64,000 nucleotides of DNA from NCBI GenBank assembly GCA_963668695.2, contig CAXXLQ010000004.1:2528001-2592000 (forward strand). Direction: 5' to 3'. The position numbers and the translations under genes are program-made. Each line of letters starts with the position of its first letter. Within the stretch, counting starts at the first letter, position 1. The DNA is from Vicinamibacteria bacterium. Lineage in GTDB: Bacteria > Acidobacteriota > Vicinamibacteria > Marinacidobacterales > Marinacidobacteraceae. Under the pieces are notes generated by a model. It was not told the DNA's origin, did not search any database, and saw nothing but the letters and a program-made list of their open reading frames with translations. Positions 2,851 to 58,458 of this stretch are shown in pieces.

Positions 2851-3068
2851 ACAGCCTGTGGTGAAACCCGCGCGGCGTTCGAGCGGCGATCCATCCCGCC
2901 TGAACCGCCCCCCCACCGGGAGAACTGGCGCTTTGCGGCGCTCTGCGTTGCGTTTCGGTCGAAATACACTCGGTATTCCTCCCTCACGCGCCTTGTCAGC
3001 CGGGCGCCTCGCCCCCACCGGGAGAACTGGCCGCTCTCGGCGCTCACCCGGGTTCCACCACAGGCTGT
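2851..3068. mobile_element. MITE family A copy
   Basis: 20-bp terminal inverted repeat ACAGCCTGTGGTG(A/G)AACCCG, TA on both flanks, core shared with ~10 other copies. Confidence 0.85.
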
Positions 3069-3111
3069 TAACGGGGACATTTGGTTGAGGCGGGATCAGT
3101 AGCCCCGTATC

Positions 3112-4048
3112 GTGGGTGCCACGATGCGGACGCGCGAGGAGGCGGCTGGTGATCCCGGCATTCTTCTTGGTCGCGTTGCAACTCGGTGGGTCGCCTACGG
3201 CTGTTGGGTTGTTGCTTCATGGGCCGCGGTCACAGGTGTCGGCTGCGGCGGCAGCGGCGGATCACCGACGGTCCCCGGTCCGGTCGTGTCCCCGGCTCCC
3301 GAGCCTCCGCCACCGGATCCGCCCGAGGCTCCGTCTCCCGGCGTCGTGGTGACCCCGGAGCAACTCGTTCTTGCCGAAGGAGAAACCACCACGCTGAGCG
3401 TACGGTTGGCGACGCCACCGACCGCTCCGGTCACCGTTGCCGCAAGTATCCAGGCCGACGCGGGACTCTTCGCCGAATTCGGCAAGGGCACTCCTCTAGA
3501 GATTGTCCAAGGCGGTCGTTTGGTGTTCGACGCGGATACTTGGGACTCGCAACAGACGGTAAAGGTGGTCGCGCAGCACGATTTCGACAGCGTCGATGAG
3601 CAGGCAGCCATCTACCTGGACACAACGAGTAACGACGCCGCTTATGAAAATCTGCCGCGGCTCAGTCTTCCAGCGCACATCACCGACGATGAGTCGGAGA
3701 ACCTTGGCATCTGGGTGTTCGGCCATAAGTTGTATGGCCCCCCCGAGGGGGAAACGAGGTTTTACGGTGTTTCATTGAGCGGTGAGCCGACCGGCGATGT
3801 GGTCGTAACGGTGGCGAGTAGTGATCCGGGAATCCTTGAGGTCACCGAGGGCGGTGAGCTGCTGTTCACGCCAGGTGACTTCGAGATGCTGCAGTGGTTT
3901 TCCCACTTTCAGGGTCAAGGCAGAACGAGACGCTGTCGCGCAACAACCTATCGTTGAGGAATTTGCCGTGCACTTCCTGTCGGGTCGCGGTGGCGGTGAG
4001 TGCGTCGTGGAGCCCAACCGAATCCGGGTGAGGGTCAGCGATCGCTGA
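3112..4048 (+). pseudogene. Surface lipoprotein with two Calx-beta/Ig-like repeats, frameshifted near 3900
   Basis: Lipobox-like GVGC, Pro-rich linker, repeated EGET..V.L...PT..V.V motif; removing one T at 3898-3901 joins the frame ending at 4048. Confidence 0.6.
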
Positions 4049-4303
4049 AAGGGACGCCGTCCGCCTCGGCCGTCGGCGCTGATTTCAGCGTCTGCTGGGC
4101 GGCGATTCCGGACCCCACCCGGGAGAAATGAGGCGGCCTTCGTCGAACGGCGGCGCCTCGCGGGGGGCGGCCGGTCCGCGTTTCGACCGCCTGCGGCGGG
4201 CGGTGCCGACCTGGAGGTCGGCGATCCCTTTGCCGGTGCGCCGGGAGGGGGATTTCCCCTCCTGCTAAATTGCGGCGTGGCGCGGTTGCCGCGCAGAGGA
4301 TCA

Positions 4304-9252: not shown

Positions 9253-9303
9253 CGGTCGCGGGAGACAGCCCGCGTTCCGGCACCGAGCAGAGTTTTCAGG
9301 GAG

Positions 9304-9918: not shown

Positions 9919-10485
9919 ATGACACGCTTCGAAGGGCCCCGGCCTCTCCTTGATGAAATCGGGGATGAGATCGGGGAAGATGCGGGTGAGGCGCCTTCCC
10001 GCCTCACCGCGCGCCGGCACGTCCCCGAAGACGAGCCGTTTTTCGCCGGGCACTTTCCGGCGATGCCGGTGGTCCCGGGGGTCTTCATGTTGGAAGCGCT
10101 CGCCGAATGCGCCCGCCGGTCGCTTCCGCCCGGCGCGACGCTTGCATCTGCACCCCTCGTGCGATTCCGCCGCCGCGTTTCTCCCGGGGAAACCCTCGAA
10201 CTCAGCGTAACCCCGACCGGCGGCGAGGGTGACCGGCGCCGGTTCGATGCCGTGGCTTCGGTGGAGGGTCGGGCCGCCGTCCAGGCGACCCTGGAGTTTC
10301 GGGCGGGGACCGGGACTTCGGCCGGGACTTCGGCCGGGACTTCGGCCGGGACTTCGGCCGGGACTTCGGCCGGGACTTCGGCCGGGACTTCGGCCGGGAC
10401 TTCGGCCGGGACTTCGGCCGGGACTTCGGCCGGGACTTCGGCCGGGACTTCGGCCGGGACTTCGGCCGGGACTGCGGAACGATGA
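9919..10485 (+). CDS. fabZ: 3-hydroxyacyl-ACP dehydratase FabZ-like with (TSAG)n tail
   Basis: [24 protein letters not shown] motif; bamA-skp context. Confidence 0.75.
10312..10473 (+). repeat. 12-bp VNTR (GGGACTTCGGCC) x13.5, in frame
   Basis: Perfect tandem copies read directly. Confidence 0.97.
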
Positions 10486-11840: not shown

Positions 11841-11888
11841 GCCAGTTTTCCCGGTGGGGCGTTCACGCCCCCACCGGGAGAACTGGCC
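11841..11888. terminator. Hairpin formed by two inverted copies of the 18-nt motif
   Basis: GCCAGTTTTCCCGGTGGGGCG-TTCA-CGCCCCCACCGGGAGAACTGGC; no clear U-tract. Confidence 0.45.
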
Positions 11889-14153: not shown

Positions 14154-14263
14154 GCTGGCGATCGGCGTTCCGCTTCACACCGGGACAGCAGCGCGCCGGA
14201 GCGCTGCTGGTCCTCGTGCTGCTGGTGATCGCTCTGATCCGCCGCTCAGCAGCCTGTGGATAA
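14150..14263 (+). CDS. Small membrane peptide; possibly the detached 5' end of miaA
   Basis: GTG overlaps the upstream stop; hydrophobic LLVLVLLVIALI; stop supplied by the MITE. Confidence 0.45.
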   Translation: MSWRSAFRFTPGQQRAGALLVLVLLVIALIRRSAACG

Positions 14264-14483
14264 AGTGGCGTGAGCGCCGAGAGCGGTGAGGCGCCCGGCT
14301 GACAAGGCGCGCGAGGGAGGAATACCCGGTGTATTTCGACCGAGGCGCCCGAAGCGCCCGAAGCGCAACGATGAGCGACGCGAAGCGCCGGTTCTCCCGG
14401 TGGGGGGGCGGTTCAGCCGGGATGCATCGCCGCTCGAGCCCCCACCGGGAGAACTGGGCCGCGAGACTTTGTTCACAGGCTGC
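14249..14483. mobile_element. MITE family A copy (reverse orientation)
   Basis: TIR GCAGCCTGTGGATAAAGT / ACTTTGTTCACAGGCTGC, TCA on both flanks. Confidence 0.85.
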
Positions 14484-15510: not shown

Positions 15511-15589
15511 GGAGCCGGTGGACAAAGTCAGGCGCCCCGGTTCTCCCGGTGGGGGCTTCGGCGTTCACGCCACCTTTTCCACGGGCTCC
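15511..15589. mobile_element. Internally deleted 79-bp MITE family A copy
   Basis: GGAGCCGGTGGACAAAG ... CTTTTCCACGGGCTCC inverted ends around one 18-nt motif. Confidence 0.65.
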
Positions 15590-15606
15590 TAGAATCCCCC
15601 CGTTCC

Positions 15607-18649: not shown

Positions 18650-19477
18650 TTACCGCGCGTCGCGGACCAAAACGCCGCGCTTCTGTTCGCTCCGCAGGTT
18701 ACGTGTGTGTGACTTGTGGAAGGTGACGAGATAGATCTCGTCCTCTTCGGTTCGTTTCACGACTGCCCTAACAGCCTGTGGTGAAACCCACGCGGCGTTC
18801 GAGCGGCGATCCATCCCGCCTGAACCGCGCCGCTTTGCGGCGCTCTGCGTTGCGTTTCGGTCGAAATACACCCGGTATTCCTCCCTCACGCGCCTTGGCA
18901 GCCGGGCGCCTCACCGCTCTCGGCGCTCACCCGGGTTCCACCACAGGCTGTTATACCAACGACCGTGGAACTTGCCGAAGAAAGAAAGACTCCGACGGCC
19001 AGGGTGCCGGATCGCCGTACCGTGTTCGACCAAGGTCGGTAGCCGGCCGTAGTCCGTCACACTGAGGTCCGGGTGCTTGACGAGTTGCTTGAACGCCGTG
19101 TCCGGGGAGAGGCGGACGACCCGCGACCACGCTTCTGTTGGCTCGGTGGCGGATCCCAGGGCTTCATGTGCCCCCTTGGGAAGAAGGGCGACAGGTAGTT
19201 CGGCGAGGCCCGGTTCCATCTCCGGCCTCATCTCGCTCGCCTCGGGATGTTTCTGCCGCACAGCCCTGATCTGGGCATCGAAGCATCGGAACACGGGTCC
19301 GCAGCAGACCGACCGGACGGCGGTGCGCGCCAACGCGTCGTCGGGCTCTCCGTCCAGTTTCGTGATGAATCGGTTCATCGCTGCGGGCGATGGATCGGTA
19401 ACCAGGGATGCCAGCGCGGACTCATATTCGTCCGCGGCGCCAGCCTCCGTCGCGGGTAAATCCTCGCCGGGTTTCAC
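18650..19477 (-). pseudogene. PBECR2-like (barnase/RelE-fold) nuclease-domain gene interrupted by a MITE
   Basis: VRLSPDTAFKQLVKHPDLSVTDY...GRWY|RAVVKRTEEDEIYLVTFH resembles MuF-associated PBECR domains; excising the MITE restores a 214-aa ORF. Confidence 0.65.
18771..18951. mobile_element. MITE family A copy, 181 bp, without the 18-nt motif
   Basis: TIRs plus TA duplication; lies inside a gene. Confidence 0.92.
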
Positions 19478-25518: not shown

Positions 25519-25696
25519 TGCGAAGCTCGTCGACAGTGCGGGCGAACGTATTCGCCGGGAAGCCGGAATGGTTCGTGAAATCGGGCCGTACTGAAGCGAT
25601 TCGGAGGTGTAAGAACTGAGTTACTACGCCCGCAACTTCCGAACGTAATGGGGCGGCTGCCGATACCCGGTCATGATCGCGGGGCCGGATGGGAGC

Positions 25697-27872
25697 AACA
25701 TTTCGCATTACCCGGGTCTGGCCGGGGAACATGTCGCAGTAGCGGGATCGGCTGGAGGGGCACATGTCGCAACAATTCGGATCTGCCGGGAGAACATGTC
25801 GCACTAGTTGGACCGGCTGGATCGGAACATGTCGCAATAGCGGCATCTGCCGGGGAACATGTCGCAGTAGCCGGATCCGCCGGTGAAACATGTCGCACTA
25901 GTTGGATCGGCTGGATCGGAACATGTCGCAATAGCGGCATCTGCCGGGGAACATGTCGCAGTAGCGGGGCCGGCTGGAGCCGAACATGTCGCAGTAGCCG
26001 GATCTTCCGGGGGAACATGTCGCACTAGTTGGACCGGCTGGATCGGAACATGTCGCAATAGCGGCATCTGCCCGGGGAACATGTCGCACTAGTTGGATCG
26101 GCTGGATCGGAACATGTCGCAATAGCCGGATCCCGGGCTCACGCGGGCGGTCACCCCTCTCCCCGCCCGAGGGCTCGTTTCGGCTCGAGCACTATCAGTG
26201 CGTAAAAGTAGGTGTCTCCCAAGTGCGTAAAAGTTGGTGTCTCTTGACAGCTCTGGTTGGATCGGCTGGAGGCGAACATGTCGCAGTAGCCGGATCTTCC
26301 GGGGAACATGTCGCTCTAGTTGGATCGGAACATGTCGCACTAGCCGATGCTGCCCGTGGAACATGTCGCTGTAGCGGGATCGGCTGGGGTCGAACATGTC
26401 GCAGTAGCCGGATCTGGCGGGGAACATGTCGCAGTAGCGGGATCGGTTGGAGCCCTACATGTCGCACTAGCCGGTTCTGCCCGGAGAACATGTCGCACTA
26501 GCGGGATCGGCTGGATCGGAACATGTCGCTTTAGCGGGATCTGCCGGAGGAACATGTCGCAGTAGCGGGATCGGTTGGAGCCGAACATGTCGCACTAGCC
26601 GGATCTGCCCGGGGAACATGTCGCTCTAACGGGATCGGTTGGAGCCGAACATGTCGCAATAGCCGGATCTGCCGGGGGAACATGTCGCACTAGCGGGATC
26701 TGCCGGTGGAACATGTCGCAGTAGCGGGATCGGTTGGAGGAACATGTCGCACTAGCCGGATCTGCCGGGGAACATGTCGCACTAGCGGGATCTGCCGGTG
26801 GAACATGTCGCAGTAGCGGGATCGGTTGGAGCCGAACATGTCGCACTAGCCGGATCTGCCGGGGGAACATGTCGCTCTAGCGGGATCGGTTGGAGCCGAA
26901 CATGTCGCACTAGCCGGATCTGCCGGGGGAACATGTCGCAGTAGCGGGATCGGTTGGAGCCGAACATGTCGCACTAGCCGGATCTGCCGGGGAACATGTC
27001 GCAGTAGCGGGATCGGCTGGGGCCGAACATGTCGCACTAGCCGGATCTGCCGGGGGAACATGTCGCAGTAGCGGGATCGGCTGGGGCCGAACATGTCGCA
27101 CTAGCCGGATCTGCCGGGGGAACATGTCGCAGTAGCGGGATCGGTTGGAGCCGAACATGTCGCACTAGCCGGATCTGCCGGGGGAACATGTCGCAGTAGC
27201 GGGATCGGCTGGAGCCGAACATGTCGCACTAGCCGGATCTGCCGGGGGAACATGTCGCAGTAGCGGGATCGGCTGGAGGCGAACATGTCGCACTAGCCGG
27301 ATCTGCCGGGGGAACATGTCGCAGTAGCGGGATCGGCTGGAGCCGAACATGTCGCACTAGCCGGATCTGCCGGGGGAACATGTCGCAGTAGCGGGATCGG
27401 CTGGAGTCGAACATGTCGCACTAGCCGGATCTGCCGGGGGAACATGTCGCAGTAGCGGGATCGGCTGGGGTCGAACATGTCGCACTAGCCGGATCTGCCG
27501 GGGGAACATGTCGCACTAGCGGGATCGGCTGGGCCGAACATGTCGCAGTAGCCGGATCTGCCGGGGGAACATGTCGCAGTAGCGGGATCGGTTGGAGCCG
27601 AACATGTCGCACTAGCCGGATCTGCCGGGGGAACATGTCGCTCTAGCGGGATCGGTTGGAGCCGAACATGTCGCACTAGCCGGATCTGCCGGGGAACATG
27701 TCGCAGTAGCGGGATCGGCTGGAGCCGAACATGTCGCTCTAGCCGGATCTGCCGGGGAACATGTCGCAGTAGCGGGATCGGCAGGAGCCGAACATGTCGC
27801 AGTAGCGAGATCGGTTGGAGGCGAACATGTCGCAGTAGCGGGATCGGCCGGGGGAACATGTCGCAGTAGCGG
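25697..27872. repeat. Satellite-like tandem array, ~65 units of 30-33 bp in two blocks (~14 and ~51 units)
   Basis: Core AACATGTCGCnnTAGnnGGATC; alternating 31- and 33-bp units give a 64-bp higher-order repeat. Confidence 0.97.
26197..26249 (-). mobile_element. Solo IS21-like transposon end
   Basis: Minus strand begins TGTCAAGAGACACC and carries two 22-bp direct repeats 25 bp apart. Confidence 0.55.
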
Positions 27873-31924: not shown

Positions 31925-32095
31925 GAGTCCGTCCGAGGTATGAACGCGGCATTCGACGGGCGATTCATCCCGGCTGAATCGCTACGCTCATCGTTGCGCT
32001 TCGGTCGAAAGAGCGCTGCTATTCCTCCCTCACGCGCCTTGTCAGCCGGGCGCCTCGCCCGTCTCGGTGCTCGCGCCATACCCCGGACGGACTCC
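31924..32095. mobile_element. MITE family A core with variant arms
   Basis: GGAGTCCGTCCGAGGTATG / CATACCCCGGACGGACTCC inverted ends; fills the whole mdh-sucC spacer. Confidence 0.8.
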
Positions 32096-33267: not shown

Positions 33268-33719
33268 ACAAAGTGAACCGGCATTCCCGAGCCAGAAGGG
33301 ATGGTGGTCGGGTGACCCCGCCCCCCGTCCCTTCCGCTCCGGGGTCTCCGCGGTGCTCGCGCCCCGCTCCGGGGTCTCCGCGGTGCTCGCGCCCCGCTCC
33401 GGAAGCCCGAGCCGGAAGGGATGGTGGTCGGGTAGCCCCGCCCCCCGCCCCTTCCGCTCCGGGGTCTCCGCGGTGCTCGCGCCCCGCTCCGGAAACGAGC
33501 GGCGATGCATCCCGGCTGAACCGCCCCCCCACCGGGAGAACTGGCGCTTTGCTCCGCTCGTCGTTGCGCTTCGGTCGAAATACACTCGGGCCAGTTCTCC
33601 CGGTGGGGGCTCCTCCCTCGCGCGTCTTGTCAGCCGGGCCCCCACCGGGAGGACTGGCCCCACCGGGAGAACTGGGCCTCACCACTCTCGGTGCTCGCCC
33701 CACTTTGCCCACGGACTGT
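33257..33719. mobile_element. Composite MITE family A copy with internal tandem duplications
   Basis: ACAGCCCATGAACAAAGTG / CACTTTGCCCACGGACTGT ends; duplicated internal blocks 33286-33492; four 18-nt motifs. Confidence 0.75.
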
Positions 33720-33730
33720 TCGGAGGCCGC

Positions 33731-35418: not shown

Positions 35419-35703
35419 ATGCCGGAGCAGAGCAACAACATCACGCGAGCCAACGTGATCGCGGTGGTTGCTGCTCTAGGAATTGTCGCTGAGGTCGGCC
35501 GGGAGGTTGAGGCGCATCGCTACGAGGAAGTTCGAACTAGCGGTCATCCCGTCATGGACCAAATCTATGGCGGCGAGGTGCCACCATCGGGGGAGATTTT
35601 CCCTAAACCTGTGTCGGGTTCCGACCCTGTAGACCACGCGGTAAACGCTCGTCCCGCTCGTTGGTCGTTCGCCCGGAAACGAACGGCGATGCATCCCGGC
35701 TGA
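35419..35703 (+). CDS. Small hypothetical protein, 3' end runs into a MITE remnant
   Basis: GGGAG SD + ATG, hydrophobic segment, lower GC. Confidence 0.35.
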   Translation: MPEQSNNITRANVIAVVAALGIVAEVGREVEAHRYEEVRTSGHPVMDQIYGGEVPPSGEIFPKPVSGSDPVDHAVNARPARWSFARKRTAMHPG

Positions 35704-35849
35704 ATAGCTCCGCTTCGCGTCGCCCATCGTTGCGCTTCGCTCGAAATACACTCGGGCCAGTTCTCCCGGTGGGGGCTCCTCCCTCGCGCGCCTTGTCAGC
35801 CGGGCGCCTCACCGCTCTCGGTGCTCACCCCACCTTGTCCACGGACTGC
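35673..35849. mobile_element. MITE family A copy lacking its left arm
   Basis: Core and right arm match the copy at 33489-33719. Confidence 0.75.
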
Positions 35850-35880
35850 TAACGCTGACGCCGGACGGAGGAAATCGAAA

Positions 35881-36465
35881 CTGGGAAGCATCAAGCCGGA
35901 TCGCTGGATCCGCCGGATGTCGAAAGAGCACCGGCTGATCGATCCGTTCGTGGACCATCAGGTCGGGCAGGGGGTCATCTCCTACGGGCTGTCCGCCTAC
36001 GGCTACGACATCCGCGTCTCCAACGAGTTCAAGATCTTCACGAACGTTCACACCACGATCGTGGACCCGAAGAACTTCGACGAGCGGAGCTTCGTGGACT
36101 ACAAGGGCGAGGTGTGCGTCATCCCGCCCAACTCCTTCGCACTCTCCAACACGATCGAGAACTTCCGGATACCGCGGAACGTCTACGGCATCTGCATCGG
36201 CAAGTCCACCTACGCGCGTTGCGGCATCATCATCAACGTGACCGGGTTCGACGCCGAGTGGGAAGGGAACGCGACGCTCGAGATCTCGAACACGACCCCG
36301 CTTCCGTGCCGCATCTATGCCGGGGAGGGGATCGCGCAGGTGCTCTTCTTCGAGAGCGACGAGGATTGCGAGGTCAGCTACCGGGACAAGAAGGGGAAGT
36401 ACCAGGGGCAGGAACGCATCACCCTGCCCACGATCCTCGGCCGGGGCTCCGGTTCCGGCACGTAG
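35881..36465 (+). CDS. dcd: dCTP deaminase, copy 1 (CTG start)
   Basis: [45 protein letters not shown]. Confidence 0.95.
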
Positions 36466-37257: not shown

Positions 37258-38236
37258 ATGAGACGAATCATCCTCTCTCTTTTCGCAACGGGCCTGCTCG
37301 CTGCCTGTCCCGGGGATTCCGGGGTCCCTCCCCCGTCCCCGACCACGCCCCTCGCCGGCGAGGCGACGCCCACCGGAGGGGGTGGGAGCGGCCTCTCGAC
37401 CCTGAGCCTCGGGGATCCGAAGATCCTCACGGTGGTCAAGGAGCAGTTCATTCAGACCTTCGGCGACGACTCGTGCTCGGTGCCTGCCGGAGCGGTTGAG
37501 GTCAGCGACCAATGGCTCAGAGTCGGATCCGGGTTGCAGTGCCGCCAGATTGCCTGGACAATCGGAAACTCGGGGGGTAGTTGCGAGGCGGGTTGCAAGG
37601 ACTGGCCAGACCCCACTACCGAGGGAGAAGGCGAAGGCGCCACCACCGAGGAGACTCCAACCACCGAGGTCCCGCCGCCGCCCGTGGAGGACGCTGCCCG
37701 TGGAGGACCTGCCCGTGGAGGACACGCCCGTGGAGGACACGCCCATGGAGGACACGCCCATGGAGGACACGCCCATGGAGGACCTGCCGCCAGTGGACTC
37801 ATGCACGGCTTCCTTCGCGACATATACCCAATCTACGAACGAGGCAATACAAGCGGCGACTTGCGACTCTTTAACCCTTTGCAAGTGGGATGCTGGGAAA
37901 TGTGTAACCTGCCAATCGAAGTTGATTGACGGAGTCGGGACCTGCCTCGACAAGCAGGTGCCTGAAATCGTGCCAGGGACCGTGTCAGGGACCGTGCCTG
38001 AAACCAATAGGTGCGAAAACCCAGACGACGAAAACCTATACAACCCGCCGGGGGGCTTCGTGGCCGGGGTGTGGAGAGACCACGACTCCGTGTGTACAAA
38101 AAGAGTGCGGGGTGGAAAATGTGAGGCTCTTTATTGGGTCGGCGTGGTCGGGGCGAGCTCAGTCGAGGCGTGTTCCGTGCCGCCTAGCTGGTGTAGCGTC
38201 CTCGATCGAGGGGACATCGGACAATGCAAAAGATAG
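37258..38236 (+). pseudogene. Cys-rich lipoprotein, frameshifted at ~37693
   Basis: GAGGAG SD, lipobox LAAC; one extra base in the first of seven 15-bp repeats switches frame. Confidence 0.65.
37681..37786 (+). repeat. 15-bp tandem repeat x7 (PVEDT/PMEDT)
   Basis: CCC(G/A)TGGAGGAC(ACG/CTG); first unit is 16 bp. Confidence 0.93.
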
Positions 38237-38283: not shown

Positions 38284-38331
38284 AGGGCCGTAGCTCAGCC
38301 GGTTAGAGCGCCTGTCCGATAAACAGGAGGG
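38284..38331 (+). pseudogene. 5' two-thirds of tRNA-Ile(GAT), no T-arm
   Basis: TAGCTCAGCCGGTTAGAGCG D-arm; CCTGT-CCGATAA-ACAGG anticodon arm; no GTTCRA T-loop follows. Confidence 0.65.
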
Positions 38332-38384
38332 ACGAGGCGACGCACGGGTTCCGTCTGGTCCGGGTTCACGCCATTCTTTACGAC

Positions 38385-38585: not shown

Positions 38586-38658
38586 CTTACCGCTCTCGGT
38601 GCTCACCCCACCTTGTCCACGGACTGCTAGCTCTGACGCCGGACGGAGGAAATCGAAA

Positions 38659-39243
38659 CTGGGAAGCATCAAGCCGGATCGCTGGATCCGCCGGATGTCG
38701 AAAGAGCACCGGCTGATCGATCCGTTCGTGGACCATCAGGTCGGGCAGGGGGTCATCTCCTACGGGCTGTCCGCCTACGGCTACGACATCCGCGTCTCCA
38801 ACGAGTTCAAGATCTTCACGAACGTTCACACCACGATCGTGGACCCGAAGAACTTCGACGAGCGGAGCTTCGTGGACTACAAGGGCGAGGTGTGCGTCAT
38901 CCCGCCCAACTCCTTCGCACTCTCCAACACGATCGAGAACTTCCGGATACCGCGGAACGTCTACGGCATCTGCATCGGCAAGTCCACCTACGCGCGTTGC
39001 GGCATCATCATCAACGTGACCGGGTTCGACGCCGAGTGGGAAGGGAACGCGACGCTCGAGATCTCGAACACGACCCCGCTTCCGTGCCGCATCTATGCCG
39101 GGGAGGGGATCGCGCAGGTGCTCTTCTTCGAGAGCGACGAGGATTGCGAGGTCAGCTACCGGGACAAGAAGGGGAAGTACCAGGGGCAGGAACGCATCAC
39201 TCTGCCCACGATCCTCGGCCGGGGCTCCGGTTCCGGCACCTAG
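38659..39243 (+). CDS. dcd: dCTP deaminase, copy 2 (identical protein)
   Basis: Direct repeat of copy 1 at offset 2778 bp. Confidence 0.95.
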
Positions 39244-39250: not shown

Positions 39251-39760
39251 GTGGAGCTGATCGCGGGCGCCGCTCTCCGGCGCCGGCTCGCCGACGATCC
39301 GCCGCTTCTCTCCGGCCTGGTGGATCCGGAGGTGCAGATCCAGATGAACGGAGTGGATCTCACCCTCGCCGAGGTGAGTCTCTTCGGGACGGGTCCGGGC
39401 CGGGTGGATTTCGACAACCGCAGCCGCCGCATTCCGGCGCCGGAACCGCTCTCGCCCGACGGCGACGGCGTCTTTCGGCTCCCCGCCGGGCCTTACTGGA
39501 TTCGCTACCACGAAGTGGTGAACATCCCGCCGGACGTTTTCGCCATCGGACGCACCCGGTCGTCGCTGCTCAGAAGCGGAGCGCAGATCGGCACCGCGCT
39601 ATGGGACTCGGGGTACCGAGGACGCAGCGGTTCCCTCCTGACCGTCCACCATCCCGACGGACTGGAACTCATCCGCGACGCCCGCATCCTCCAACTGGTG
39701 TTCTTCCAGTTGGCGGCGCCGGCCGAGCGGACCTACTCGGGCGAGTACCAGAACGAGTAG
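39251..39760 (+). CDS. dut: Trimeric dUTPase, archaeal/dcd-like type
   Basis: QMNGVDLTL, RSSLLRSG, TALWDSGYRG, YSGEYQ. Confidence 0.8.
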   Translation: MELIAGAALRRRLADDPPLLSGLVDPEVQIQMNGVDLTLAEVSLFGTGPGRVDFDNRSRRIPAPEPLSPDGDGVFRLPAGPYWIRYHEVVNIPPDVFAIGRTRSSLLRSGAQIGTALWDSGYRGRSGSLLTVHHPDGLELIRDARILQLVFFQLAAPAERTYSGEYQNE

Positions 39761-39881: not shown

Positions 39882-40925
39882 ATGCATTTCGTCATTCCGA
39901 TCGTTCTTTCCCTGCTGATGGCAGTTCCGGCTCCCGCTCAGCCCCGCTCCGACACGAACCTGCGAGACGAGATCACGTCGGCGATCGAAGAAGCGAATCT
40001 GCCGATCGGCATTTTCGAAGTGGAGGTGCGGGACGGAGTTGCCGTGCTGAGCGGGGAAGTGCTGGACGAGAGCACGCGGACGCGGGTGGTGGAGCTGGCG
40101 CTCTTCGTGGACGGGGTGGTTGCGGTCGAAACGGACATCGCCGTGCTGCAGATGGAAGAGCCGGAGGATGCGGAAGCCGAGGGAATCGCCTCCGAGGCGC
40201 CCGCGGCAGAAGCTGAGGAAGATGCCGCTCGCGCTCCATCGCCCCCGCCGGCCGCGCGGACCGCAACGCGCGCCGATGGGGCCGTGCAGGCCGAGGTGGT
40301 GCGGGAGATCGAGCGGGCGGATCTCGAAGGCGGCGATCCCCGGGTCATCGTGACGGACGGGGTCGTCCGGCTCACCGGGCAGGTCGCGAGCGCGTGGGAG
40401 TGGCGCGACGTCGTCGAGCGCGCCGAATCGGTTTCCGGAGTGCTGGCCGTAGATCCGGATCTCGAGGTCGCCGAGCCGGAGAGCATGGAGGACCTCGTCG
40501 AAGGGGTCCGGCGGGCCGTGCTCCGCTATTCGTACTACACGGTTTTCGACGACATCAACTTCGGGGTGGAAGAGCCGTACGAGATCGTCCTGCTGGGGTC
40601 GGTGACCGAACCGTTCAAGAAGACCGAGCTCGAGAAACGGGTTGCCAAGGTCTTTGGAGTGAAGAGCGTGGACAACCGGATCGAGGTCCTCCCGCTCTCC
40701 CCGAACGATCAGGACCTTCGCCGCGCCCTCTACTACCGGATCTACCGGGACTCCCGCTTCTCGGATCGGGCCAACCGGGTGAATCCCCCGATCCACATCG
40801 TGGTTTCGCGGGGGGTGGTGGCGCTTACCGGAGTGGTCCGGAGCGCGATCGAATCCCGGATTCTCGAGTCCATCGCCCGCAGCACGCCAGGGGTCTTCCG
40901 GGTAATCAACCGCCTCGAACACTGA
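39882..40925 (+). CDS. Multi-BON-domain exported protein
   Basis: Signal peptide; repeated V.V.DGV..L.G.V...GV..V.N.L motifs. Confidence 0.88.
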   Translation: MHFVIPIVLSLLMAVPAPAQPRSDTNLRDEITSAIEEANLPIGIFEVEVRDGVAVLSGEVLDESTRTRVVELALFVDGVVAVETDIAVLQMEEPEDAEAEGIASEAPAAEAEEDAARAPSPPPAARTATRADGAVQAEVVREIERADLEGGDPRVIVTDGVVRLTGQVASAWEWRDVVERAESVSGVLAVDPDLEVAEPESMEDLVEGVRRAVLRYSYYTVFDDINFGVEEPYEIVLLGSVTEPFKKTELEKRVAKVFGVKSVDNRIEVLPLSPNDQDLRRALYYRIYRDSRFSDRANRVNPPIHIVVSRGVVALTGVVRSAIESRILESIARSTPGVFRVINRLEH

Positions 40926-41336
40926 CAGCCGGTGGATAAAGTGGCGTGAGCGCCGAGGCTGGCGAGGCCCAGTTCTCCCGGTGGGGGTCCGGCTGACAAG
41001 GCGCGCGAGGGAGGAGCCCCCACCGGGAGAACTGGCCCGGGTGTATTTCGACCGAAACGCAACGATGAGCGCCGCGAAGCGACGCGGTTCAGCCGGGATG
41101 GATCGCCGGCCGAACGCCGCGTGGGTTTCATCACCGGTTGTTTGGCCGGGATGGATCGCCGGCCGAGCCCCCACCGGGAGAACTGGGCCACGCGGGTTTC
41201 ATTACAGGCTGTTTGGCCGGGATGGATCGCCGGCCGAGCCCCCACCGGGAGAACTGGGCCGCGCGGGTTTCATTACAGGCTGTTCAGCCGGGATGGATCG
41301 CCGCTCGAACGCCGCGTGACTTTGTCCACAGGCTGT
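40925..41336. mobile_element. MITE family A (reverse) with internal 71-bp tandem expansion
   Basis: ACAGCCGGTGGATAAAGT / ACTTTGTCCACAGGCTGT ends. Confidence 0.82.
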
Positions 41337-41370
41337 TACTTGGGCGGCCCCGGGGCCGCCCCGGCGAGCG

Positions 41371-46206: not shown

Positions 46207-46415
46207 GAGGTCGGCTCCCCCTTCCTGCGCGACCGTCAATTTCTTGGGCGAGGTAGCGGATTCAGATCAGGAGGCGACGGAAGATGCAAGGGACTCACTA
46301 TTTTACCACGCTGCTTCCGCGCACGGCGGTCCCGCGCGAACCCCTACCGGGAGAACTGGGCCCCGCGACTCCTGTCCACGGCCGGCTGGCAGCGGTGGTC
46401 AGGCGCACGAGTTGA

Positions 46416-47410
46416 GCAGCCCGCAGACAAAGTCGCGCGGCGTTCGTGCGGCGATCCATCCCGGCCAAACAGCCTGTGGTGGAACCCACGCGGCCCAGTT
46501 CTCCCGGTGGGGGCTCGGCCAGCGATCCATCCCGGCCAAACAACCGGTGATGAAACCCACGCGGCCCAGTTCTCCCGGTGGGGGCTCGGCCGGCGATCCA
46601 TCCCGGCCAAACAACCGGTGATGAAACCCACGCGGCCCAGTTCTCCCGGTGGGGGCTCGGCCGGCGATCCATCCCGGCCAAACAGCCTGTAATGAAACCC
46701 GCGTGGCCCAGTTCCATCCCGGCCAAACAGCCTGTAATGAAACCCGCGTGGCGTTCGGCCGGCGATCCATCCCGGCTGAACCGCGTCGCTGCGCGCCGCT
46801 CGTCGTTGCGTTTCGGTCGAAATACACTAGGTATTCCTCCCTCACGCGCCTTGTCAGCCGGACCCCCACCGGGAGAACTGGGCCTCGCCGGCCTCGGCGC
46901 TCACGCGGGTTCCACCACCGGCTGTTCACCGCGTCGCTTCGCGTCGCTCATCGTTGCGTTTCGGTCGCAATACACGCGGTATTCCTCCCTCACGCGCCTT
47001 GTCAGCCGGGCGCCTCGCCCCCACCGGGAGGACTGGCCGACCTCGGCGCTCACGTGGGTTCCACCACCGGCTGTTCACCGCGTCGCTACGCGCCGCTCAT
47101 CGTTGCGTTTCGGTCGCAATACACCCGGGCCAGTTCTCTGGGGGCTCCTCCCTCACGCGCCTTGTCAGCCGGGCGCCTCGCCCCCACCGGGAGGACTGGC
47201 CGGCCTCGGCGCTCACGCGGATTCCACGACCGGCTGTTCACCGCGTCGCTGCGCGGCGCTCATCGTTGCGTTTCGGTCGCAATACACCCGGGCCAGTTCT
47301 CCCGGTGGGGGCTCCTCCCTCGCGCGCCTTGTCAGCCGGGCGCCTCGCCCCCACCGGGAGAACTGGGCCTCGCCGCTCTCGGCGCTCGCGCCACTTTATC
47401 CACAGGCTGC
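46416..47410. mobile_element. Expanded MITE family A (71-bp and ~150-bp internal tandem units)
   Basis: GCAGCCCGCAGACAAAGT ... ACTTTATCCACAGGCTGC enclosing four core copies. Confidence 0.85.
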
Positions 47411-47896
47411 TAGCGCGGCGTCGTAGTCCGGTTCTTCCTTGATTTCCGGAACGAGCTGGGAATAGCCGACCTTGCCGTCCGGGCCCACCACGACCACCGC
47501 CCGCGCCAGGAGTCCGGCGAGCGGCCCCTCCGTGATTGTGAGGCCGTATGCCTCACCGAACGAACTGCCGCGCATCTCCGAGACGCAGCGGACCGCCTCG
47601 ATGTCCTCGGCGGCGCAGAAACGCCCGTGGGCGAACGGGAGATCCCGCGATACGCACAGGACGGTCACCCCCTCGAGGGCGGCGGCTTCTTCGTTGAAGC
47701 GCCGGACCGAGGCCGCGCACACGGGGGTGTCCACGCTCGGGAAAATGTTAAGGATCAGCCGCTGCCCGGCGTAGTCGCGGAGCGCAACGTCACCGAGGTC
47801 GCCGCCGGTAAGCGTGAAATCGGGAGCGGTGTCTCCAGCCTTGGGAACATCTCCCGAAATGGCGAACGGGGTGCCGCCAAGCGTGACGGTAGCCAT
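47396..47896 (-). CDS. tpx: Thiol peroxidase
   Basis: LNIFPSVDTPVCAASVRRFN, SRDLPFA.RFC, EPDYDAAL. Confidence 0.96.
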   Translation of the reverse strand: MATVTLGGTPFAISGDVPKAGDTAPDFTLTGGDLGDVALRDYAGQRLILNIFPSVDTPVCAASVRRFNEEAAALEGVTVLCVSRDLPFAHGRFCAAEDIEAVRCVSEMRGSSFGEAYGLTITEGPLAGLLARAVVVVGPDGKVGYSQLVPEIKEEPDYDAALAACG

Positions 47897-47925: not shown

Positions 47926-48106
47926 GGAGCCTGTCCCGGTAATAGCACGGCATTCGACCGGCGATGCATCCCGGCTGAACCGCGCCGCTTTGCGGCGCTC
48001 ATCGTTGCGCTTCGGTCGAAATACACTCGGTATTCCTCCCTCACGCGCCTCGTCAGCCGGGCGCCTCACCGGTCTCGGTGCTCCCGCTATTACCGGGACA
48101 GACTCC
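47926..48106. mobile_element. MITE family A core with variant arms
   Basis: GGAGCCTGTCCCGGTAATAGC / GCTATTACCGGGACAGACTCC. Confidence 0.82.
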
Positions 48107-50607: not shown

Positions 50608-50625
50608 GAGCGGCAGGAGCGCTTG

Positions 50626-50960
50626 GGAGCGCCGGTCTTCAGGCCCCCACCGGGAGAACTGGCCAGCATCGCCCGCGTAGCGGGCGCAACTCCCATCGCC
50701 CCCCCGAGCCGAAGCGCGAGGACGGCAGTCCCGCTCACCCCACTTCCACGACGTAGCTTCAGGCCCTCACCGGGAGAACTGGCCGGCATCGCCCGCGCAG
50801 CGGGCGAAACTCCCGTCGCCGCCCGAGCAGAAGCGCGAGGACGGCAGTCCCGCTCACCCCACTTCCACGACGTAGCTTCAGGCCCTCACCGGGAGAACTG
50901 GCCGGCATCGCCCGCGCAGCGGGCGCAACTCCCGTCGCCATCCGAGCAGAAGCGCGACGA
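50626..50960. repeat. Three tandem ~120-bp REP-derived units, each with the 18-nt motif
   Basis: CTTCAGGCCC(C/T)CACCGGGAGAACTGGCC at ~50637, 50757, 50876; related unit at 58274. Confidence 0.85.
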
Positions 50961-53263: not shown

Positions 53264-53273
53264 CAGCCCGTTA

Positions 53274-54994: not shown

Positions 54995-55028
54995 GGATTC
55001 CGGGTCCTTTGGGAAGAGCGGTCGTGGA

Positions 55029-55946
55029 TCAGCGGTCGTTTTTTCGGCGTCCGCCGCCGAGGAAGGCGGTAGACAGGAACCCCCCGGCGAGGGCCAAACC
55101 GGCGGTGACGATCTGGGCGCCCGTCGGTACGAAATGGACGCCGTTCATGGTCTGGAAGGGCCAGAGCCCTGCCGAGGCTCCCAGCAGGAGCCCGAAGAGC
55201 ACGCCGAGAGTCACCTGCCGATGGGCGCCCAGAAAGTATCGCACGAGGCGCGCGGCGGCGGCGATGCCGAGCGCTATGCCGAAGAAGAAGGGGAGGACGC
55301 CGGAAATGGCCGCGAGAATCGCCGACGGATCCCAGGGCCGCGATCCGAGGGTGTCTGCCAGCCGGTCCGCCGCGTTCAGAAACGGCAGGTACATCCCCAT
55401 CAACAGCAGCAGGGTGCTGCCGCTGATCCCGGGCAGCACCATCGCGAAGGCGGCGACCGCTCCGGCCCCGAAGAGGGCGGGCGCCGACGCCGCGAGTGCC
55501 GACGCCTCCGGGCCTCCCCGGCTTACCAGCACGATCGGAAGCACTACTGCCAGCGCTCCCGCGACCGATCCCACCCCAAAGGCCCGGTCGGGAGATGACG
55601 CCATCCGCCAGAGCAGCGGGGCGCCCCCGAGCGTGAGGCCGAGGAACAGCGCGAAGAACAGGACCGGCCACGCGGTGAAGGCGTCGCGAGCCGCACCGGC
55701 GACGCCGAAGACGGCCAGCAGGGCTGATCCGACGGTCACCAGGAGGCGGGCCACCGAGGCGCGCCGCAGCCGTCCCGAGGTGATTTCGGCGACCGCGCCT
55801 ACCAGCTCCGGGTAGACCCCGGCGGCCAGAATCATCGTTCCGGCGCTCACCCCAGGTACGAGACTCGCGAGGCCGCCGAGGATTCCGGCCACCGCACATC
55901 GTCCCAGGGTTACCCTGCGGCCGGTCCCTCCGCTGAGCTGCACCAT
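55029..55946 (-). CDS. DUF368-family membrane protein
   Basis: LVPGVSAGT and [13 protein letters not shown] repeats. Confidence 0.85.
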
Positions 55947-56034
55947 TTGGCGAGTGTACGGTTCAAGAGCGCTCCCCCGGCCGCTCGCGATCGGCCATGA
56001 TCCCGGCGCCGGTCCCAAGCACCCGAGGGCCTAA

Positions 56035-56689
56035 ACAGCCTGTGCTGAAACCCAGGCGGCGTTCGAGCGGCGATCCATCCCGGCCAAACAACCGGTGATG
56101 AAACCCACGCGGCCCAGTTCTCCCGGTGGGGGCTCGGCCGGCGATCCATCCCGGCCAAACAACCGGTGATGAAACCCACGCGGCCCAGTTCTCCCGGTGG
56201 GGGCTCGGCCGGCGATCCATCCCGGCTGAACCGCGTCGCTTCGCGGCGCTCATCGTTGCGTTTCGGTCGGAATACACGCGGTATTCCTCCCTCACGCGCC
56301 TTGTCAGCCGGACCCCCACCGGGAGAACTGGGCCTCGCCGGCCTCGGCGCTCACGCGGGTTCCACCACCGGCTGTTCACCGCGTCGCTTCGCGCCGCTCA
56401 TCGTTGCGTTTCGGTCGGAATACACCCGGGCCAGTTCTCCCGGTGGGGGCTCCTCCCTCACGCGCCTTGTCAGCCGGGCGCCTCCCCGGCCTCGGCGCTC
56501 ACGTGGGTTCCACCACCGGCTGTTCACCGCGCCGCTTTGCGGCGCTCGGCGTTGCGCTTCGGTCGAAATACACTCGGGCCAGTTCTCCCGGTGGGGGCTC
56601 CTCCCTCACGCGCCTTGTCACCCGGACCCCCACCGGGAGAACTGGGCCTCCCCGCTCTCGGCGCTCACCCGGGTTCCACCACAGGCTGT
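56035..56689. mobile_element. Expanded MITE family A
   Basis: ACAGCCTGTG ... CACAGGCTGT with TAA on both flanks; same internal tandem units as 46416-47410. Confidence 0.88.
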
Positions 56690-56691
56690 TA

Positions 56692-58275
56692 ATGCTTCGA
56701 AAAACGAGTGTCACCTTCGTCGCTCTCCTCCTCACCGCCAGCGGCTGCGGGGACCGCTACGACCGGATTCTGGTGGGCGGCGAGGTGTACGACGGGCGCG
56801 GGAACCCGCCGCAGGTCATGGATATCGGCATCAACGGCGACCGCATCGCCGCCATCGGGGACCTGTCCGCGGCAAGCGCCGGGCAGCGCACCGACGTCTC
56901 CGGGCTCGCGGTGGTCCCCGGCCTGGTGGATATCCACAGCCACGCGGTCCTTGGCGTCTTCCGTCACCCGCTCGCGGAGAACTACCTGCGGCAGGGGGTG
57001 ACCACCGCCGTCGGCGGCCCCGACGGCGGCTCGCCGCTGCCGGTCGGCGCGTGGCTGGAGCGGTTCGAGGCGGAGGGCTCCGCGATCAACATGGGGCTCC
57101 TGGTCGGGCACGGGACCGTGCGCCGCGAAGTTCTGGGAATGGAGGATCGGGCCCCGACCGAAGCCGAACTCGACGCCATGCGCGACCTGGTGGACGCCGC
57201 GATGCGCGAGGGAGCGTTCGGTCTCTCCACCGGGCTCAAGCTCCTCCCCGGCGCCTTCGCCGAGACCGAGGAGGTCATCGCCCTCGCCCGGGTGGCCGCG
57301 GGCTACGGCGGCGTTCACATCAGCCACCTGCGCGAGGAGGGGCTGGCGCTGCTGGACGCGGTGCGCGAGACGATCCGCATTGGCGAGGAGGGAGGTCTCC
57401 CCACCCAACTCACCCATCACAAGGTGGTCGGCGCCCCGATGTGGGGTCGGAGCGAGGCGAGCCTCGCCCTCGTGGACGAAGCGGTGGCCCGCGGGGTGGA
57501 TGTGACGATCGACCAATATCCCTACACCGCCTCGTCCACTTTTCTCACGATCCTGTTTCCGGCCTGGAGCCTCGCCGGCGGCGCCGAAGCTCTCGCCGGG
57601 CGCCTCCGGGACCACGGGGACCCCGGGGACCGGGAGCGGATCCGGTTGGCGGTCCGGGAGAACCTCGAAGTGGATCGTGGCGGCGGCAGCCCCGACAACG
57701 TCGTCATCGCCGATTGCGAGTGGGACCCGTCGCTCGAAGGGAAGAGCCTCGGCGACATCCTTCGCGAACGGGGTCTCCCCGTCACGACCGACGCGGGGGC
57801 GACGCTCGCCCTCGAACTCCAGGAAAAAGGCGGGTTCCTCGGCGTCTTCCACGCCATGCACGAGGACGATGTCCGACGCATCATGCTCCATCCGCGGACC
57901 ATGATCGCCTCCGACGGCGGCATCGTGGCCCCCGGCGAAGGGGTGCCGCATCCGCGGAACTACGGGACCTTCGCCCGGGTGTTTTCGCTCTATGTCCGCG
58001 AGGCCGGCCTGCTTTCCTTCGCCGAGGCGGTCCGCAAGATGACTTCGCTCCCGGCCGGCCGGCTCGGGATGACCGATCGGGGGGTGCTGGAGGAAGGGGC
58101 GGTTGCGGACATTGCGGTGCTCGACCCGGAAGCGGTCGAGGCGCCGGCCGGGTTCGGCGATCCGCACCGGTACGCCACCGGGGCGCGGCACGTGCTGGTC
58201 TCCGGGGTCTTGGTCCTCGAGGACGGGGAGGTCACCGGCGCCCGTCCCGGCCGCGCACTCCGCCGCGGCCGGTAG
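56692..58275 (+). CDS. N-acyl-D-amino acid deacylase family amidohydrolase (lipoprotein)
   Basis: ASGC lipobox, PGLVDIHSH, SHLREE, DQYPY, HPRNYGTFAR. Confidence 0.92.
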   Translation: MLRKTSVTFVALLLTASGCGDRYDRILVGGEVYDGRGNPPQVMDIGINGDRIAAIGDLSAASAGQRTDVSGLAVVPGLVDIHSHAVLGVFRHPLAENYLRQGVTTAVGGPDGGSPLPVGAWLERFEAEGSAINMGLLVGHGTVRREVLGMEDRAPTEAELDAMRDLVDAAMREGAFGLSTGLKLLPGAFAETEEVIALARVAAGYGGVHISHLREEGLALLDAVRETIRIGEEGGLPTQLTHHKVVGAPMWGRSEASLALVDEAVARGVDVTIDQYPYTASSTFLTILFPAWSLAGGAEALAGRLRDHGDPGDRERIRLAVRENLEVDRGGGSPDNVVIADCEWDPSLEGKSLGDILRERGLPVTTDAGATLALELQEKGGFLGVFHAMHEDDVRRIMLHPRTMIASDGGIVAPGEGVPHPRNYGTFARVFSLYVREAGLLSFAEAVRKMTSLPAGRLGMTDRGVLEEGAVADIAVLDPEAVEAPAGFGDPHRYATGARHVLVSGVLVLEDGEVTGARPGRALRRGR

Positions 58276-58458
58276 GAGCGCCGGTCTTCAGGGCCCGACC
58301 GGGAGAACTGGCCAGCATCGCCCGCCGGAGGCGGGCGAAACGCGCGATGCTCACCACCCTCGCGGTGCCCACGGTAACGCTGGGTTCCCGAGGTTGAAGA
58401 AGACGCGCTGGCAGCATCGGAAACGCCTCCACGAAGCGAAAACCGCGAAGATACCCCG

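Follow-up and report, generated by a model that had tools for sequence, protein, structure and literature searches.

An 18-nucleotide word gained at many positions within two intergenic repeat families of marine Vicinamibacteria

Within a 64,000-nucleotide (nt) chromosomal stretch of a Vicinamibacteria bacterium (assembly GCA_963668695.2, contig CAXXLQ010000004.1, positions 2,528,001 to 2,592,000; the whole of this stretch is referred to below as the window), one non-palindromic word of 18 nt, CCCCACCGGGAGAACTGG, recurs between genes and inside larger repeats. Alignment of repeat copies that hold the word with copies that lack it shows a discrete module that has been gained at no fewer than 14 positions in two repeat backbones, with an orientation and a junction that are fixed for each position. 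These are independent gains of a single module at many positions in the intergenic repeats of a marine Vicinamibacteria clade, and they place the word among the smallest insertion-like units seen in bacteria. As to how the gains arise, we find it plausible, if still short of probable, that short templated patches copy the module, that it multiplies as a passenger of its host repeats, and that recognition by a clade-specific factor accounts for its retention.

Results

The word is abundant and confined to intergenic DNA

An earlier, sequence-only reading of this DNA had seen the word more than 30 times by eye, had placed it essentially only in intergenic repeats, and had called for a k-mer count against expectation and a comparison of coding with intergenic DNA. 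Both checks, run within the window, bear that description out. Searching the two strands for the word with up to three mismatches returns 36 matches in 64 kb where 0.16 would be expected; in 100 shuffles of the window that preserve dinucleotide composition, the count never reached 36. Thirty-five of the matches are copies of the word, 25 exact and ten with one mismatch; none has two mismatches, and the match with three, at 48898, is a chance one inside a coding HpcH-type gene. Beyond two mismatches the counts are those of background (1, 4 and 22 matches at three, four and five mismatches, compared with 0.2, 2.1 and 15.8 in block shuffles). Taken together, the shuffles and the mismatch spectrum rule out chance or base composition as the source of the copies.

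The copies, 21 on the plus strand and 14 on the minus strand, amount to about 0.5 per kb of an ordinary chromosomal stretch (68% G+C) whose genes include aspS, an ABC transporter, a Clp ATPase, bamA, skp, a TonB-like gene, spoIID, miaA, recG, icd, mdh, sucCD, ndk, dcd, xseAB and ahcY. Coding DNA makes up 68% of the window and holds none of the 35 copies; all are intergenic, clustered in 11 of the 32 non-coding gaps. Gene calls are approximate, being based on G+C content at third codon positions (GC3) and checked with Pfam. The 48 open reading frames (ORFs) scanned in the 64-kb window include no transposase, RAYT, reverse transcriptase or recombinase, the sequence-only reading having proposed that HUH/RAYT, reverse transcriptase or recombinase genes be sought beside the word. 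The window is the one sample with unbiased counts. At least 112 further loci were picked by exact match to the 18-mer in a collection with one genome per species (596 Gb), and every figure below that draws on these loci holds among the matches listed.

The core of the module is the non-palindromic 18-mer itself, which preferred flanks, (G/C)C before and (G)CC after, extend to some 20-23 nt: across loci and window, C stands at -1 in 234 of 255 copies, G stands at -2 in 205 of 255, and CC or GCC follows the word. What had looked earlier like GCC/GGCC duplications at some junctions are these preferred flanks, not target-site duplications. The word with its flanks forms no hairpin (-2.7 and -2.9 kcal/mol, z +0.36 and +0.50 on the two strands), so that a hairpin or terminator role for the word alone is ruled out. 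The 18-mer has no terminal inverted repeats, its size (18 nt, or 20-23 nt with flanks) falls below the approximately 50-500 nt of miniature inverted-repeat transposable elements (MITEs), and it lacks the imperfect palindrome and stem-loop of repetitive extragenic palindromes (REPs) and REPINs. The earlier judgement was thus right in that no known MITE or REPIN is as short, yet repeats of about 20-27 nt that are described as mobile exist in cyanobacteria. No sub-word of 10 nt or more occurs in the window outside full copies, apart from an 11-nt match near 48905 within the chance coding match, and the absence there of solitary halves, or of halves bounding longer elements, rules out the word as the end or footprint of a larger element.

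Two repeat families host the word

The first host is a 184-nt element with 27-nt inverted ends that folds into a long hairpin (-49 kcal/mol, z -4.31). This element is a MITE, and partial units of it are also strung head to tail in arrays whose periods are 71, 148 and 163 nt. Its reference copy at 18770-18953 holds no word; its near-twin at 2850-3070 holds one after ...CTGAACCGC and one after ...GGGCGCCTC, as the sequence-only reading had described, and stripping out the word leaves the two 97.3% identical. The other host, a REP-like double hairpin, has intact units at 61822-61870 and 61900-61960. The contrast drawn earlier between split and intact REP hairpins also stands, with splits at 50645 and 58294 against the intact unit at 61822. 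A single word in a REP breaks the stem (50610-50700, z -0.30), and the pair at 11842 and 11869, placed symmetrically in the two REP arms, yields a 22-bp-class hairpin (-30.9 kcal/mol, z -4.85). This last pair had been taken for a free inverted pair at 11841; it is instead a REP hairpin with the word in both arms.

Window and loci together hold 257 copies with at most two mismatches, of which 184 lie in copies of the 184-nt element that BLAST detects, 14 in its fragments and 39 beside a REP-type box; 17 are unclassified and three are chance matches in other phyla. By script, therefore, 237 of the 257 copies belong to two repeat families, and by eye most of the 17 unclassified ones are REP variants. 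Where several unrelated repeat families had been proposed as hosts, the copies reduce to two superfamilies and arrays built from them. Rfam assigns no RNA family at gathering score to the word or to the repeats, the one borderline tRNA match lying elsewhere in the window.

A separate observation concerns the relation of the word to one of its hosts. The word with its right flank at 50651-50664, CGGGAGAACTGGCC, and the REP head at 61822-61835, AGGGAGCGCCGGCC, agree at 10 of 14 positions by eye, a likeness that could hint at derivation of the word from the REP head or could be a product of chance in G+C-rich DNA.

Filled and empty sites have constant junctions

The alignment of filled and empty sites that the sequence-only reading had proposed was carried out by stripping the word from all sequences, aligning the rest to the reference MITE and placing the removed copies on it. 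The word occupies ten MITE positions, none of which takes both orientations. Reverse copies are found at positions 27 (49 copies), 43 (four), 107 (43, plus one at 110) and 146-148 (four); forward copies are found at positions 56 (one), 61/62 (17), 70/71 (six), 127 (four), 137/138 (40) and 143-145 (15). At least four further positions lie in the REP, those beyond the four aligned having been assigned by eye. The filled and empty versions of a given site are paralogous copies nested within these repeats.

Nine junction classes were defined, none with a target-site duplication. The junction type is constant within a position and differs between positions, the net gain being 18 or 19 nt, the unit 18-21 nt long, and zero to three target bases being replaced. 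At position 27 (site D), GT or AT gives way to the reversed word followed by GC in all 47 filled copies examined at this junction, and GC occurs there in none of 38 empty ones; the reversed replacement reported earlier at 46495 belongs here, although the bases lost are GT in ...GCGGCGTTCG and not CGT. At position 107 (site B), TAT is exchanged for G, the reversed word and GC, which agrees with the reversed copies that had been noticed in place of TAT at 33591 and 35757. Position 43 loses AT, and position 127 (site E) replaces TT with GC and the 18-mer. At positions 61 (site A) and 71, GC or GG becomes CC plus word; two empty copies of position 61 already read CC, which makes that event a clean 18-nt insertion. 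Positions 138 (site C') and 144 (site C) show clean insertions of 18 and 19 nt, respectively. In the REP hairpin, three GG^CC positions take a clean 19-mer, and a fourth site, GGAAC^GCCGGCC, takes 18 nt, with AAC kept in two copies and AGC present in four.

Some targets recur. MITE position 27 and the fourth REP site share the 8-nt target GAAC^GCCG, and CGC-NN^CGCT is common to sites A and A2, which lie on opposite arms of a small palindrome. At position 138 the word is repeated two or three times in a row in units of exactly 18 nt, and partial tandem restarts of 11-13 nt occur in one genome. Inspection of 93 stripped MITE copies revealed only 11 other insertions of at least 5 nt, all singletons and several of them remnants of the word, so that the word is by far the dominant insertion class in the MITE, both by sites and by frequency. 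The idea that a blunt 19-mer is cut out as a restriction fragment and ligated at GG^CC fits three REP positions; it fails as a general rule because MITE sites D, B, A, E, 43 and C' do not conform.

Empty sites carry bases that are absent from filled ones, and therefore neither simple deletion nor point mutation explains the pattern. This bears directly on the possibility that all copies descend from one heavily loaded ancestral composite whose empty sites are later deletions, the outcome that the sequence-only reading had named as fatal to an insertion account. Some MITEs are indeed loaded with up to seven words, and words do mediate deletions between themselves. Empty sites, though, carry GT, TAT, AT or TT, which filled sites lack, and do so uniformly across species, a sequence that slippage on flanking short repeats would not produce; the word also sits at four or more positions of a second, unrelated backbone, some sites are confined to single lineages, and the ancestor would have had to pack at least ten words into 184 nt. 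We regard a single composite as very improbable indeed.

The word is shared across one clade

Nearly all matches listed from the collection come from more than 15 assemblies labelled Candidatus Marinacidobacterium (Acidobacteriota, class Vicinamibacteria), 'Vicinamibacteria bacterium' or 'Acidobacteria bacterium', several of which are closed chromosomes, OZ252286, OZ244986, OZ246946 and CBDHFO010000017 among them. Single matches in Georgenia, Pseudarthrobacter and an Acidimicrobiaceae metagenome-assembled genome (MAG) lie inside long reading frames of high GC3 and are chance, about 17 being predicted for an 18-mer in 596 Gb under equal base use. A 6.1-kb contig labelled as a Gammaproteobacteria MAG (JAKZVH010000183.1, locus L051) holds two words in a REP context of acidobacterial type; it may be misbinned, or the repeat may have been transferred. 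An assembly or adaptor artefact is unlikely, given the many independent assemblies, chromosome-level records and short contigs alike, and a plasmid or phage origin was set aside when PLSDB and INPHARED gave only chance-level partial matches (E >=0.2). In a text search of the literature, neither this word nor any repeat of the clade was found described, and 'Marinacidobacterium' was not mentioned.

The repeats of the window are 80-98% identical to those of the other word-bearing genomes, and no locus is identical to the window, which accordingly seems to belong to a related member of the clade. Some positions are lineage-restricted among the matches listed: 127 and 56 are filled only in OZ246946, and 107 only in four Marinacidobacterium-type genomes, the window included, being absent from 12 MITE matches of two others. 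Such lineage counts per position derive from loci chosen for containing the word.

Comparison of the loci with the window genes by blastn gave no overlap, and tblastn identified one true orthologue pair, the window and locus L088, downstream of an amidohydrolase gene. The spacer holds the word in both, in the same orientation, between flanks that cannot be aligned. In a second pair (L005 and L036) a deletion has cut a MITE down to its end plus the word, and in a third (L033 and L059) an extra, species-specific MITE lies at the orthologous locus. The neighbouring MITE that L033 and L059 share has opposite internal orientation in the two, and this pair speaks for recent mobility, or for invertibility, of the host MITE.

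The word is better conserved than its hosts on average

Within site groups of the window, the word shows six mismatches in 558 nt and its flanks 198 in 1705. A hand tally of the MITE groups alone, which omits the heterogeneous REP group, gives 3 in 468 against 125 in 1430 (Fisher P 1e-12), and the mismatch in the unbiased window sample as a whole is 10 in 630, or 1.6%. Across 77 MITE copies from loci and window, the mean mismatch to the column majority is 10.7%, and the best 18-nt stretch, at positions ~120-143, reaches 2.3%. The word is thus about tenfold better conserved than the average host-repeat position. Decay is nevertheless seen, in a tandem partner with four mismatches (L005) and in a window-family copy with an internal deletion.

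The MITE itself has a best conserved block at ~111-143 (18880-18912 in the window), with 2-3% mismatch against the mean of 10.7% in the same 77 copies, and the element therefore has internally constrained parts. This block is the 31-nt segment that lies between the oppositely oriented words of positions 107 and 138.

A doubly substituted variant, CCCTACCGGGAGAACCGG, occurs ten times, only in OZ246946 among the matches listed. It sits at MITE positions 27 and 127, in four MITEs each, and in two REP contexts; the MITEs that carry it have the standard word at other positions, one of them holding seven copies. Such a subfamily is a sign of copying with inheritance.

One explanation of this conservation is that the word is a host-level signal, either uptake-like or a site for a nucleoid, segregation or regulatory protein, that selection or molecular drive keeps perfect and whose insertion was only its rare origin. 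The density in the window, the near absence of imperfect copies with no decayed tail there, the identity of the word in many species, its presence in both orientations with inverted pairs forming hairpins, and the preferred bases beyond the 18-mer all fit such a signal, as do the AAC and AGC versions of the fourth REP site, which look as if the flank had been tuned afterwards, and the orthologous spacer that keeps the word between unalignable flanks. Against it, the word is absent from coding DNA even though it has no stop codon in any frame and a length that is a multiple of three, 237 of the 257 copies sit in two repeat families and are not spread over the genome, and up to seven words in one MITE are hard to justify. 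As a complete account we consider a host signal quite doubtful; it overlaps with the recognition component of the patch-copying reading. The sequence-only reading had offered a selected binding or uptake-like signal as one of two alternatives, and the conservation and the many species make it probable that this is part of the answer, while the complete absence of the word from coding DNA speaks against uptake-like spread.

Occupancy does not follow single gain and clean descent

A quick maximum-likelihood tree of the 77 stripped MITE copies, built from 184-nt sequences and accordingly weak, was used to count the fewest state changes needed at each site. Site D (34 filled) requires 16 changes and site B (37 filled) 12, compared with means of 23 and 26 under shuffled labels; sites A (13 filled), C' (17) and C (12) require 10, 14 and 11, close to the shuffled means of 12.3, 15.6 and 11.3. 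Occupancy differs in most of the 119 MITE pairs that are at least 93% identical: the MITE at 2850, filled at A and C, is 98.4% identical to an empty copy (L039), and another empty copy (L033) is 97.3% identical to one filled at D, B and C (L094). In the window alone, several pairs of sites show all four combinations of presence and absence. This pattern points to repeated gain at the same site or to exchange between copies, and does not agree with one gain and clean descent thereafter.

Chimeric flanks make exchange through the word directly visible. Where the left flank of site B meets the right flank of site D, positions 28-107 have been deleted; in another chimera a right-end flank adjoins a site-B flank; and where the left flank of site C meets the right flank of site C', at 47349, 7 nt are duplicated. 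In this last case GCCTCGC lies on both sides of the copy at 47349-47366, the sole true flanking duplication seen, and it looks like an unequal exchange between a position-144 copy and a position-138 copy. With low certainty, we favour few origins followed by exchange and hitch-hiking over repeated gain at the same site, because the tree rests on 184 nt, copies near the consensus need not be young, and the junction is invariant within a site.

The same observations bear on the idea that a dedicated enzyme or RNA-templated writer, encoded elsewhere, inserts an 18-20-nt cassette into G+C-rich or hairpin targets and hits the same site repeatedly. Such a writer would account for the sharp bounds and indivisibility of the unit and for its dominance among insertions in the MITE, for the fixed orientation per site and the 8-nt target shared by two unrelated backbones, for the clean 19-mers at three GG^CC sites, and for head-to-tail tandems of exactly 18 nt, up to three in a row. 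The copying of a variant subfamily into several contexts, the new sites restricted to particular lineages among the matches listed, the differences in occupancy among MITEs 97-98% identical and the near-random states of A, C' and C on the weak 184-nt tree also speak for it. Weighing the other way, transposase, RAYT, reverse transcriptase and recombinase genes are absent from the window, which covers 64 kb; there are no target duplications, terminal repeats or hairpin for an enzyme to hold; the junction varies in length (18, 19, 20 or 21 nt, with zero to three target bases lost) over at least three target types; and its invariance within a site is simpler under one origin per site. We consider a dedicated writer possible, although unlikely. 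A more specific form, for which we see only a slim chance, is a natural short-cassette writer, a sequence-specific machine such as a reverse transcriptase or a nuclease-polymerase that carries its own 18-nt template and adds one or more exact units at nicks in G+C-rich hairpins. Such a machine, which would be comparable to telomerase or to a natural prime editor, would explain the fixed unit, the 18-nt tandems, the 11-13-nt restarts, the absence of duplicated target bases and the few bases lost at the junctions.

Copies of the word in the window

The full-length MITE at 2850..3070 (+) is filled at site A (2911..2928, +; reference position 61) and at site C (3013..3030, +; position 144, net +19). 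The REP hairpin that follows has a copy with one mismatch in its 5' arm (11842..11859, -) and the partner copy in its 3' arm (11869..11886, +). The reversed MITE at 14250..14482 (-) is filled at A by a copy of the variant AACCGG (14388..14405, -) and at D by the copy at 14440..14457 (+; position 27), and a second AACCGG copy (15537..15554, -) lies beside a solitary MITE-end-like fragment. The 184-nt reference MITE, empty at all sites, is at 18770..18953 (+), and partial MITEs with no word lie at 31944..32072 (+) and 47948..48083 (+).

Between sucC and sucD, a MITE covering positions 31-163 (33496..33700, +) holds four words: one at site A (33527..33544, +), one at site B with TAT replaced (33591..33608, -; position 107), and a tandem pair at site C' (position 138) whose first member is the variant GGAGGACTGG (33640..33657, +) and whose second is at 33658..33675 (+). 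The whole gap between the two genes (33268-33730, 463 nt) consists of repeats, two to three copies of a 90-nt family (33286-33492) preceding this MITE. At locus L072 of another genome, where the flanking genes are unrelated, the 90-nt family again adjoins the same MITE, and the combination therefore looks like a composite mobile unit inside an operon. A permissive RNA-family scan of 33268-33730 returned only microRNA-hairpin models, far below threshold.

Further along, a MITE at 35680-35830 is filled at site B (35757..35774, -), and the reversed MITE at 40925-41142 is filled at C' (40969..40986, -) and B (41018..41035, +). Tandem units of 71 nt, each a MITE end plus the word at site D, hold copies at 41169..41186 (+) and 41240..41257 (+), the next unit at 41279-41337 being empty, and again at 46495..46512, 46566..46583 and 46637..46654 (all -) and at 56114..56131 (-). 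A copy of the variant CCCTACC (46342..46359, +) stands beside a degenerate MITE end. The array of four overlapping MITE units at 46726..47412 (+; periods 148-163 nt) contains copies at C' (46864..46881, +), at C in the variant GGAGGACTGG (47019..47036 and 47182..47199, both +), at B (47293..47310, -) and at 47349..47366 (+), the last with the left flank of site C and the right flank of site C'. The MITE at 56158-56376 is filled at D (56185..56202, -) and a copy at C' lies at 56314..56331 (+); copies at B follow at 56431..56448 (-) and 56579..56596 (-), and one at C' at 56628..56645 (+).

The remaining copies belong to REP contexts or to other tandem units. A REP hairpin carries the word in its 3' arm at GG^CC (50645..50662, +), 119-nt tandem units carry the variant CCTCACC (50765..50782 and 50884..50901, both +), and the variant CCCGACC occupies the 3' arm of another REP hairpin (58294..58311, +). 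The intact REP double hairpin at 61822..61870 (+) and the second intact unit at 61900..61960 (+) have no word, and the latter shows the empty GGAAC^GCCGGCC site.

Other features of the window

Three further features of the window merit description. At 25692-27870, a 2.2-kb tandem array comprises about 34 copies of a 64-nt unit with no spacers, each unit consisting of two 32-nt halves that start with GAACATGTCGCA. G+C content is lower here (0.644), and no other part of the window has so strong a GC skew (+0.14). A Fic-like ORF borders the array on one side and an ORF lacking a Pfam match on the other; the array could be iteron-, centromere- or satellite-like.

A dCTP deaminase gene with its upstream region is duplicated at 99% identity (35808-36107 and 38586-38885; dcd at 35917-36465 and 38695-39243). 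The copies flank about 2.2 kb of lower G+C (0.627) with ORFs lacking a Pfam match, a 15-nt coding tandem repeat (37679-37783) and the borderline Rfam tRNA match (38284-38363; 30 bits against a cut-off of 29), which ARAGORN does not support. A third, diverged DCD-like ORF follows at 39251-39760. The segment is possibly an insertion with target duplication. Finally, 10310-10477 holds 14 copies of a 12-nt tandem repeat, CCGGGACTTCGG, with 99% matches, located in the 5' portion of the TonB-like gene or immediately before it.

Discussion

In the reading that we tentatively favour, that of templated patches, rare new copies would arise when a short patch is copied from an existing word into DNA with a few bases in common with the flanks of the donor, the hairpin arms of REP and MITE being the favoured recipients. 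The copying would occur by template switching during replication or repair, or by very short ectopic conversion, and not by cut-and-paste transposition. Most copies would then come from hitch-hiking on the amplification of MITE and REP and from exchange between their copies, with the word itself serving as 18 nt of homology for deletions and duplications. A putative clade-specific factor, protein or RNA, that recognizes some 20-23 nt would produce both the near-invariance across species and the dominance of the word as an insertion class; it might act for the propagation of the repeats themselves or for the host. The shared targets (GAAC^GCCG in MITE and REP, CGC-NN^CGCT on palindrome arms and GG^CC on REP arms) lend support to patch copying. 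The sequence-only reading had spoken of an ultra-small insertion unit written by an enzyme. As a description this holds, given at least 14 positions, two backbones and the bases of the empty sites; the fuzzy junctions (net +18 or +19, units of 18-21 nt) and the lack of duplication argue against a classical transposase.

Several points weigh against patch copying. Donor-recipient pairs and the trans-acting factor are both still predictions from sequence, and none of the three putatively orthologous locus pairs shows a clean gain of the word in place. The units are sharply bounded at 18-21 nt, with a few 11-13-nt tandem pieces in one genome, when a patch process should sometimes drag in longer donor flanks or truncate the word; such bounds look more enzyme-defined than random. 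An enzyme with preferences of its own could account equally well for the three target types, and the differences in occupancy at 97-98% identity, together with the many state changes on the tree, could mean recurrent insertion at the same site. The word is as conserved as the best block of the MITE, and not uniquely so, which weakens conservation as proof of function. Lastly, because only exact matches to the word served to collect the loci, filled and perfect copies are over-represented among them.

What makes the case favourable is the combination of one invariant, non-palindromic word, sharp filled and empty sites, two backbones, subfamily variants and several closed chromosomes. If a responsible gene or RNA exists, it would represent a new kind of DNA-writing activity; if replication errors and selection suffice, the system would show how a binding or recognition word colonizes selfish repeats. 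By giving rise to deletions, duplications and arrays the word also remodels its hosts, and it is found within operons, sucC-sucD being one; the reading and assembly of genomes from these uncultured marine bacteria are affected accordingly.

Among known systems, uptake sequences have cores of 9-12 nt, arise by point mutation and are frequent in genes. The word resembles the DNA uptake sequences of Neisseria and the uptake signal sequences of Pasteurellaceae in density (about one copy per 1-2 kb), in conservation across relatives, in its mostly perfect copies and in its inverted pairs. It differs from them in being 18 nt long, in arriving as an insertion, in lying almost wholly inside other repeats, and in its complete absence from coding DNA (0 of 35 copies), where uptake sequences are genome-wide.

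REPINs and RAYT-linked REPs are, like the word, intergenic, highly repeated and suspected of being non-autonomous replicators. REP units are palindromic hairpins, a conserved GTAG or CGTC end tag marking many of their families but not all (PMC3733652; PMC3116915). The word lives in a REP-like hairpin family, and its symmetric double insertion keeps the hairpin; by itself, however, it forms none, and the window contains no RAYT gene. In Escherichia coli, BIME and RIP mosaics (BIME, bacterial interspersed mosaic element) consist of REP palindromes and short extra-palindromic motifs, one of which binds IHF. These mosaics share with the word short non-palindromic modules amid REP hairpins, in variable combinations, clusters and tandems, but their motifs sit between palindromes and are not one single word in both orientations, whereas the word is just that and sits inside stems and at ten MITE positions. 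The mobile GC clusters and double-hairpin elements of fungal mitochondria and the palindromic elements of Rickettsia are likewise very short (tens to ~150 nt), found as filled and empty sites, and nested; these are palindromic or hairpin-forming, belong to A+T-rich organelle or reduced genomes, and in some cases lie in genes.

To our knowledge, insertion-like repeats shorter than about 30 nt have hardly been studied since the small dispersed repeats (SDRs) of cyanobacteria, and we know of none whose mechanism is established. The SDR families are reportedly 21-27 nt long, with SDR4-6 said to form hairpins, so that the 18-nt core of the word, itself very short, repeated and intergenic, falls just below that range and lacks a hairpin core. 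Papers that cite the original work (Elhai et al., 2008, Genome Res 18:1484) describe the SDRs of heterocystous cyanobacteria as repeats of about 20 bp that are tandemly repeated and possibly mobile, and that are inserted precisely within the HIP1 octamer. The word occurs in Acidobacteriota of 68% G+C, has no fold, is nested in MITE and REP rather than in an 8-nt palindrome, and has no sequence relationship to the SDRs. Like them, as those citing papers portray them, it is tens of nucleotides long, highly repeated, intergenic and reiterated in tandem, and a candidate for mobility; it also shows filled and empty sites nested in repeats, in its case among paralogous copies. Judged by these descriptions, the cyanobacterial SDRs are its closest precedent.

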